This document shows positions 26,234-26,420 of a DNA stretch of 64,000 nucleotides, in pieces. The stretch comes from Escherichia coli (GTDB taxonomy: Bacteria; Pseudomonadota; Gammaproteobacteria; Enterobacterales; Enterobacteriaceae), in NCBI RefSeq assembly GCF_048403405.1, contig NZ_CP183129.1; one strand, given 5' to 3'. Within the stretch, counting starts at the first letter, position 1, and the number at the start of each line of letters is the position of its first letter. Under the pieces are notes generated by a model. It made no database searches, was not told where the DNA came from, and saw only the letters and a list, made by a program, of their open reading frames with translations. The position numbers and the translations under genes were made by a program.

Positions 26234-26420
26234 AACACCCTCCAGAGAATATTCACTCACTTTATTTGCATATTAATTCACAATGATGACGTAAATCAAT
26301 GCAAATCTGCTTACCGACGAATTTCTGGCAAACGGCGGCATTCTGGAGATATGGGCGCTAAAAGTCAACTTAATGGCGGGATTTTTTATATTATTTTGTG
26401 GCTCATGCATGTTTTACAGG
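26234..26420 (-). promoter_or_regulatory. carAB control region (tandem promoters with ArgR-box-like sequence)
   Basis: immediately upstream of carA; sequence TGCATATTAATTCA near 26270 resembles an ARG box (TnTGAATwwwwATTCAnw); assignment by position and motif only. Confidence 0.55.

Follow-up and report, generated by a model that had tools for sequence, protein, structure and literature searches.

Translation of carA in this stretch of the E. coli chromosome almost certainly starts at a UUG codon directly below an ArgR operator, and the longer reading frame reported for the gene is, on the same assessment, a by-product of that operator. The window, i.e. the whole 64,000-nucleotide stretch that was analysed, is reversed in orientation relative to K-12, and in the ORF list the gene order on its minus strand is ileS, lspA, fkpB, ispH, rihC, dapB, carA and carB, with carB beginning 17 nt past the carA stop. 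Sequence features, their statistical significance, their conservation and their annotation were determined here, and ArgR binding and repression, the mapping of the promoters P1 and P2, and the profiling of initiation sites were taken from the literature. The features of the locus are as follows.

26689-27510, minus strand: dapB (ORF list).
26333..26368, minus strand: promoter P1, with -35 TTGACT (26363-26368), -10 CAGAAT (26340-26345) and its start at the G of GTTTGC at 26333 (promoter scan).
26281..26333, minus strand: match to the Rfam 'sRNA' ES003 (RF02750), being the first 53 nt of the P1 leader (cmscan).
26265..26282, no strand assigned: ARG box 1, TGTGAATTAATATGCAAA on the minus strand, which holds TGCATATTAATTCA (one mismatch to the consensus).
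26263..26266, minus strand: range of the P2 transcription start (P1-P2 distance; K. pneumoniae mapping).
26244..26261, no strand assigned: ARG box 2, AGTGAGTGAATATTCTCT on the minus strand, adjoining the Shine-Dalgarno sequence (three mismatches to the consensus, identical to K-12).
26258..26260, minus strand: in-frame GTG that opens the longest ORF and is in all likelihood not used as a start (box 2 positions 2-4, no Shine-Dalgarno sequence).
26239..26243, minus strand: Shine-Dalgarno (SD) sequence GGAGG, with the 5-nt spacer GTGTT to the UUG (conservation, anti-SD duplex).
26231..26233, minus strand: UUG (TTG) initiation codon of carA (invariance, periodicity, Ribo-RET/INRI-seq, literature).
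26260..25085, minus strand: longest carA ORF, with a GTG start, 391 aa, beginning MSEYSLEGV (mechanical ORF list).
25085..26233, minus strand: carA coding sequence from the UUG, 382 codons plus stop (RefSeq TUM14771, K-12 b0032, PDB, TIGR01368).
21849..25067, minus strand: carB, large subunit (ORF list and annotation of homologous records).

The gene encodes CarA, the small subunit of glutamine-hydrolysing carbamoyl-phosphate synthase (CPSase), as seen from its near-identity to the solved E. coli subunit and from the adjacent carB. The chains 1cs0_B and 1bxr_B differ from the CarA of the window at 1-2 residues, and the NCBIfam equivalog TIGR01368 scores 508.5 bits against a cutoff of 307.35, which places the protein in the CarA family. 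PF00988 (CPSase_sm_chain) covers residues 16-141 and PF00117 (class-I GATase) residues 205-381 of the 391-aa ORF. The TTG is codon 10 of this ORF, nine codons downstream of its GTG, and initiation there gives a protein of 382 aa. This is also the length of the E. coli small-subunit chains in the PDB, which start with MIKSALL (the exception in length is one 379-residue entry) and align with their residues 1-382 to residues 10-391 of the long ORF. TIGR01368 and PF00988 open at long-ORF residues 14 and 16, 4-6 residues past the TTG, and the nine extra N-terminal residues of the 391-aa form lie outside every family model.

Some further properties of the protein were seen along the way. Residue 167 of CarA (25735-25737, minus strand) is Thr (TTAETYSW) where the PDB sequences compared have Ala (TTAEAYSW), and the exact protein of the window also occurs in strain SMS-3-5. 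The 90%-identity cluster of CarA has 26,990 members, includes CarB-length proteins (1073-1075 aa) and has a representative of 1074 aa; this mixture of CarA- and CarB-length proteins looks like a clustering artefact that joins both subunits.

Using a 601-bp query across the region, we found matches in 5425 of 5426 complete E. coli genomes, only 74 of the 5425 reaching at least 99% identity over the query. In the best match, TUM14771 (RefSeq, PGAP), carA is 1149 nt long and its first base is homologous to position 26233; in K-12, b0032 (29651..30799) starts at the same TTG and gives the 382-aa form. Between a point ~230 bp before the TTG and the end of the ~50 bp of carA included in the comparison, K-12 MG1655 has the same base at every position, the identical stretch before and into carA amounting to ~266 bp, so that experiments made with K-12 transfer directly to the sequence studied here. 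The differences from K-12 are clustered in the distal half of the dapB-carA intergenic region (26440-26700), with ~24 substitutions there and none in the proximal ~230 bp. Position 26482 is A instead of C and differs even from TUM14771, the closest strain compared; in the RutR box, C replaces T at a central, non-consensus position.

The minus strand around the start reads ...CATCATTGTGAATTAATATGCAAATAAAGTGAGTGAATATTCTCTGGAGGGTGTTTTGATTAAG..., in which the UUG, but not the alternative GTG, is preceded by a suitably spaced SD sequence. The anti-SD duplex before the TTG amounts to -9.8 kcal/mol, a value reached by no more than 0.8% of random 20-mers from the window, and the 20 nt preceding the GTG at 26260 give +0.4 kcal/mol, i.e. 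no anti-SD pairing. Published work places the start at the same codon: the review of Charlier et al. 2018 (PMC6245113) names TTG as the initiation codon of carA, and the paper on RutR and carAB counts its positions from the TTG initiation codon, with the P1 start 100 nt upstream. In the INRI-seq study of Hor et al. 2022, the annotated carA start at 29651 was seen in 5/5 in vitro replicates (Table S2), and the in vivo Ribo-RET value given there for this position (data of Meydan et al. 2019) is 421.9. The synthetic carA template of INRI-seq carried 30 nt of natural leader, AAAGTGAGTG..., in which the GTG is included, yet Tables S2 and S3 hold no initiation site at the GTG at -27; the sole additional carA site, in Table S3, is an in-frame CTG at -12 nt. 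In those portions of the TetRP, TRAINSPOTTER and Salmonella riboproteogenomics supplements that were available as searchable text, we found neither carA nor a CarA N-terminal peptide.

We next compared the start across species. Orthologous loci were fetched for 80 species of Enterobacterales and Vibrionaceae, one genome per species and with 81-96% CarA identity, using peptide patterns that excluded the start; one locus (L057), in which the N-terminus is missing, was dropped, so that the comparison covers 79 species and the window. At the position of the TTG, all 80 sequences (window counted) have TTG. In the GGAGG at -10..-6, four positions are invariant in 80/80 and the A is kept in 79/80, with a single A-to-G change, and the 5-nt spacing between SD and TTG is the same in all 80. 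Variation is dominated by third codon positions downstream of the TTG, and no such periodicity is seen upstream of it. The nine-codon extension requires an initiation codon at -9 followed by an open frame, and of the 79 other species only 44 have both; in 11 a stop interrupts the nine codons before the TTG, and another 24 have no initiation codon at -9. Between ARG box 1 and the TTG lie 47 to 52 nt, depending on the species, showing that insertions or deletions other than multiples of 3 can be accommodated. The start and the N-terminus are thus conserved in the orthologues, and the upstream extension is not. Such an alignment with other enterobacterial CarA N-termini had been proposed as a check when the UUG start was first put forward from the letters of the window, and it agrees with that start, as do the annotation, the PDB chains, the SD sequence and the Ribo-RET/INRI-seq data.

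The sequence upstream of the start has the make-up of an ArgR operator, with two 18-bp imperfect palindromes 2-3 bp apart, and almost certainly is one. Using the 18-bp ARG box consensus WNTGAATWWWWATTCANW, box 1 is the only match with at most one mismatch in the 64 kb, where 0.09 are expected and 9 of 100 shuffles had one. Boxes 1 and 2 are separated by exactly 3 bp (TAA). The window holds one tandem pair with this spacer and at most four mismatches in total, and 300 dinucleotide-preserving shuffles gave none. The pair is conserved in position relative to the TTG throughout Enterobacterales, where TGAATTAATATGCA of box 1 is nearly invariant, and takes a degenerate, TGCAT-type form in Vibrionaceae. 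According to the review (PMC6245113), the ArgR binding site at P2 consists of two 18-bp ARG boxes with 3 bp between them, arginine-dependent binding and repression being experimental for the identical K-12 sequence. The sequence-only reading, whose interval (26234-26300) adjoins the TTG on its upstream side without including it, had pointed to an ARG-box-like sequence upstream of the start. This sequence, TGCATATTAATTCA, does sit on the plus strand at 26267-26280 within box 1; however, the site consists of two boxes, and that reading missed box 2, which contains the GTG.

The position of the GTG in box 2 offers an origin for the longer frame. As the consensus has N-T-G there and three of the four bases at N yield a formal start codon, the 'ORF start' is in all likelihood a by-product of the operator. 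Inspected by eye, C is rare at position 2 of box 2 (about 2/80) but common at the same position of box 1; the NTG 'start' is thus kept more often than the bare consensus requires.

The operator overlaps the core promoter P2. The consensus scan returned the P1 hexamers as TTGACT-17-CAGAAT, the 5' end of the P1 transcript has been described as GUUUGC, and genome-wide start mapping puts P1 at K-12 29551, 100 nt before the TTG. The review (PMC6245113) gives a distance of 67 nt between the P1 and P2 starts, which places the P2 start at 26266, and the P2 start mapped in K. pneumoniae is the A of GCAAATA, homologous to 26263 (Kim et al. 2012). The P2 hexamers are probably TAATAT at 26270-26275, inside box 1, as the -10 element and TTGATT at 26294-26299 as the -35 element; they are absent from the output of the consensus promoter scan. 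Depending on which mapped start is taken, box 1 spans about -19 to -2 or -16 to +2. The review words this as a partial overlap of the ARG boxes with the P2 -35 element, whereas by the geometry derived here box 1 lies on the -10 region and the start site. On the P2 mRNA the GTG is 3-6 nt from the 5' end, so no ribosome-binding site is possible there on this transcript.

The P1 leader also gave a full-length match to ES003, at 87.4 bits against a gathering score of 37. ES003 was described from RNA-seq by Rau et al. 2015, who report it as 133-fold down in stationary phase. The 3' end of its match coincides with the first bases of ARG box 1 and the P2 -10 region. Rather than an independent sRNA, ES003 may represent P1 leader that was terminated early or processed. 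Inspection of 79 orthologous leaders showed that the sequence of the first ES003 hairpin changes form outside Enterobacteriaceae. A 45-codon ORF in the carA frame (26410..26273) was rejected as a candidate, as it spans P1 and has its ATG upstream of both transcription starts.

The evidence speaks on three other placements of the start. That CarA begins at the GTG at 26260 and is a 391-residue protein (MSEYSLEGV...), as the longest-ORF rule and some older annotations assume, is exceedingly improbable. The frame is indeed open from this GTG, an in-frame start codon stands at the same position in 44 of the 79 other species, GenBank holds the 391-aa form (ACB19208.1 and three others), and the K. 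pneumoniae gene KPN_00040 is annotated at 1176 nt. However, the GTG has no SD upstream and a P2 mRNA leader of merely 3-6 nt, the extension is missing or interrupted in 35/79 species and tolerates indels that are not multiples of 3, and no codon periodicity is seen upstream of the TTG. In addition, INRI-seq called no site at the GTG, the crystal-structure sequences and curated annotation have 382 aa, and the GTG is accounted for by ARG box 2. Equally little credence can be given to a start at the AUU that directly follows the UUG (26230..26228). AUU is known as a rare initiator (infC), and with 8 nt between it and the SD initiation would still be feasible; yet codon 2 is AUU in only 53/79 species, being AUA, AGU, AGC, AAU, AAA or ACU in the others, while the UUG is invariant and the structures and curated records give Met-Ile-Lys.

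Dual initiation, with the UUG as the main start and a minor extended form arising from the GTG (on P1 transcripts only) or from a CTG/TTG at -4 codons, is somewhat less remote but still very unlikely. It could draw on the in-frame CTG at -12 nt (26243-26245, minus strand), which INRI-seq detected in 5/5 in vitro replicates, on a CTG or TTG at codon -4 in 70 of the 79 other species, and on the P1 transcripts, which carry the GTG behind a 73-nt leader. Against this, the in vivo Ribo-RET value at the CTG is 0, and the in vitro peak, at a distance of 12 nt from the main one, could stem from peak assignment. Codon -4 overlaps the SD (YTGGAGG; here CTGGAGG) and has no SD of its own; this overlap explains its conservation. 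The extension peptide is moreover not conserved. Initiation at the UUG is the reading that we retain.

A separate candidate around the start, an out-of-frame mini-ORF NTG-TTT-TGA over the UUG, was rejected as a conserved element. Position -5 is G, A or T and never C, and the TGA at +1..+3 is invariant; this TGA, however, is the end of the UUG plus the A of codon 2. Fourteen of the 80 species have C or A at -4, and no nucleotide separates the putative start from the SD.

In public records, the exact 382-aa protein is found on at least 1000 contigs and the exact 391-aa form on 6. The GenBank entries of the latter are ACB19208.1 (SMS-3-5), EFJ82609.1, ESD04763.1 and ESD66702.1. In K. pneumoniae MGH 78578, KPN_00040 (NC_009648 42323-43501, homologous to 26263-25085) is annotated as a long, 1176-nt carA with a GTG start, and Table S4 of Kim et al. 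2012 lists the K. pneumoniae carA P2 transcript among leaderless mRNAs with a 3-nt UTR. This listing apparently results from the mapped start being 3 nt from the mis-set GTG; carA was not found in the part of Table S7 (updated starts) of that study that was available as searchable text. The sequence-only reading was right that the ORF-track start (GTG 26260) lies nine codons upstream of the TTG (26233..26231), and right to call the matter known biology, the locus being the textbook carAB control region of E. coli described in the review (PMC6245113). Its further remark that automatic callers often mis-set this start is borne out in that mis-annotation occurs, but the counts of 6 and at least 1000 contigs make it rare; current pipelines set the carA start correctly, and 'often' overstates the problem.

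The UUG start, the ARG boxes and the tandem promoters are already known E. coli biology, and no new biology is implied. The practical consequence is that the longest-ORF rule adds nine false residues to CarA and puts a 'start codon' inside an ArgR operator, an error that has propagated to four GenBank proteins of this sequence and to KPN_00040. Only with the start placed correctly does it become apparent that the P2 5' leader consists essentially of ARG box 2 and the SD sequence. The clade-wide invariance of the UUG is a minor, testable point.

To see how far this invariance extends, a metagenome contig collection was scanned for ATG or GTG followed by the same N-terminal peptide. The scan returned 75 contigs (48 ATG, 27 GTG), whose CarA is 45-78% identical to that of E. 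coli; above 78% protein identity, neither variant turned up. The idea that UUG is universal in CarA was accordingly rejected: the codon is fixed throughout the Enterobacterales-Vibrionaceae clade and is not a general CarA property. Near the UUG, synonymous sites vary freely across the 80 species while the UUG, the GGAGG and their spacing stay invariant. This pattern, together with the lack of an ATG or GTG variant above 78% identity in the scan, raises the possibility that the UUG itself is selected beyond mere start function, through the CarA:CarB initiation level or through IF3 sensitivity, although we regard this as rather unlikely. According to the review (PMC6245113), CPSase synthesis tracks the mRNA level.

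Elsewhere in the window, an AT-rich block (GC 0.35-0.41) lies at ~35500-42000 between ribF/rpsT and nhaR. In RefSeq relatives this block holds espX1 (a type III effector) and a chaperone-usher fimbrial operon, and a 10-kb query (34400-44400) was covered to at least 80% in only 1198 of 5426 E. coli genomes. The block looks like a known accessory island. Four Rfam matches at gathering level are ordinary for that part of the E. coli chromosome:

44545-44697, plus strand: sok antitoxin RNA.
46082-46159, minus strand: tpke11.
55636-55759, minus strand: STnc490.
60538-60657, minus strand: thr operon leader.

Taken together with the published work on K-12, the following control scheme is by far the most likely one for carA. 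The UUG at 26233..26231 would direct translation via the strong GGAGG 5 nt upstream, giving the 382-residue CarA (MIKSALL...). Hexameric, arginine-bound ArgR would bind the tandem boxes at 26282-26265 and 26261-26244, which are predicted to extend from the P2 -10 region across the start site to about the 20th transcribed base, and this binding would exclude RNA polymerase from P2. P1, with its start at 26333, would be under separate control by pyrimidines and purines. The GTG at 26260 would be nothing other than the N-T-G of the T-G-A-A-T half-site in ARG box 2, and the open frame from GTG to UUG would represent operator and SD read as codons and not coding sequence.

The known system is the K-12 carAB operon, with its tandem promoters P1 and P2, an ArgR operator at P2 and a UUG start (Piette et al. 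1984; Charlier et al. 1988/1992; PMC6245113). The window shares with K-12 the dapB-carA-carB order and a control region comprising P1, the P1 leader, P2, both ARG boxes, the SD and the TTG; what differs is the ~24 substitutions in the distal dapB-carA intergenic region, more than 230 bp upstream of the TTG, and none of the start, SD, operator or promoter features discussed here is affected. Compared with canonical ArgR operators (argCBH/argE, argF, argI, artJ), the carA site has the same two WNTGAATWWWWATTCANW-like palindromes with a 3-bp gap in a 39-bp site, and likewise overlaps a sigma-70 promoter. Unlike them, it accounts for practically all of the P2 mRNA's 5' leader and directly adjoins the SD, and it lies downstream of P1, a second promoter outside ArgR control from which transcription continues across the operator. 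The UUG itself can be compared with the AUU of infC (IF3 autoregulation), as in both cases a weak initiator is kept over a long evolutionary distance, for carA from Escherichia to Vibrio; in contrast to infC, no regulatory role is known for the carA UUG, and distant relatives of CarA use ATG or GTG.
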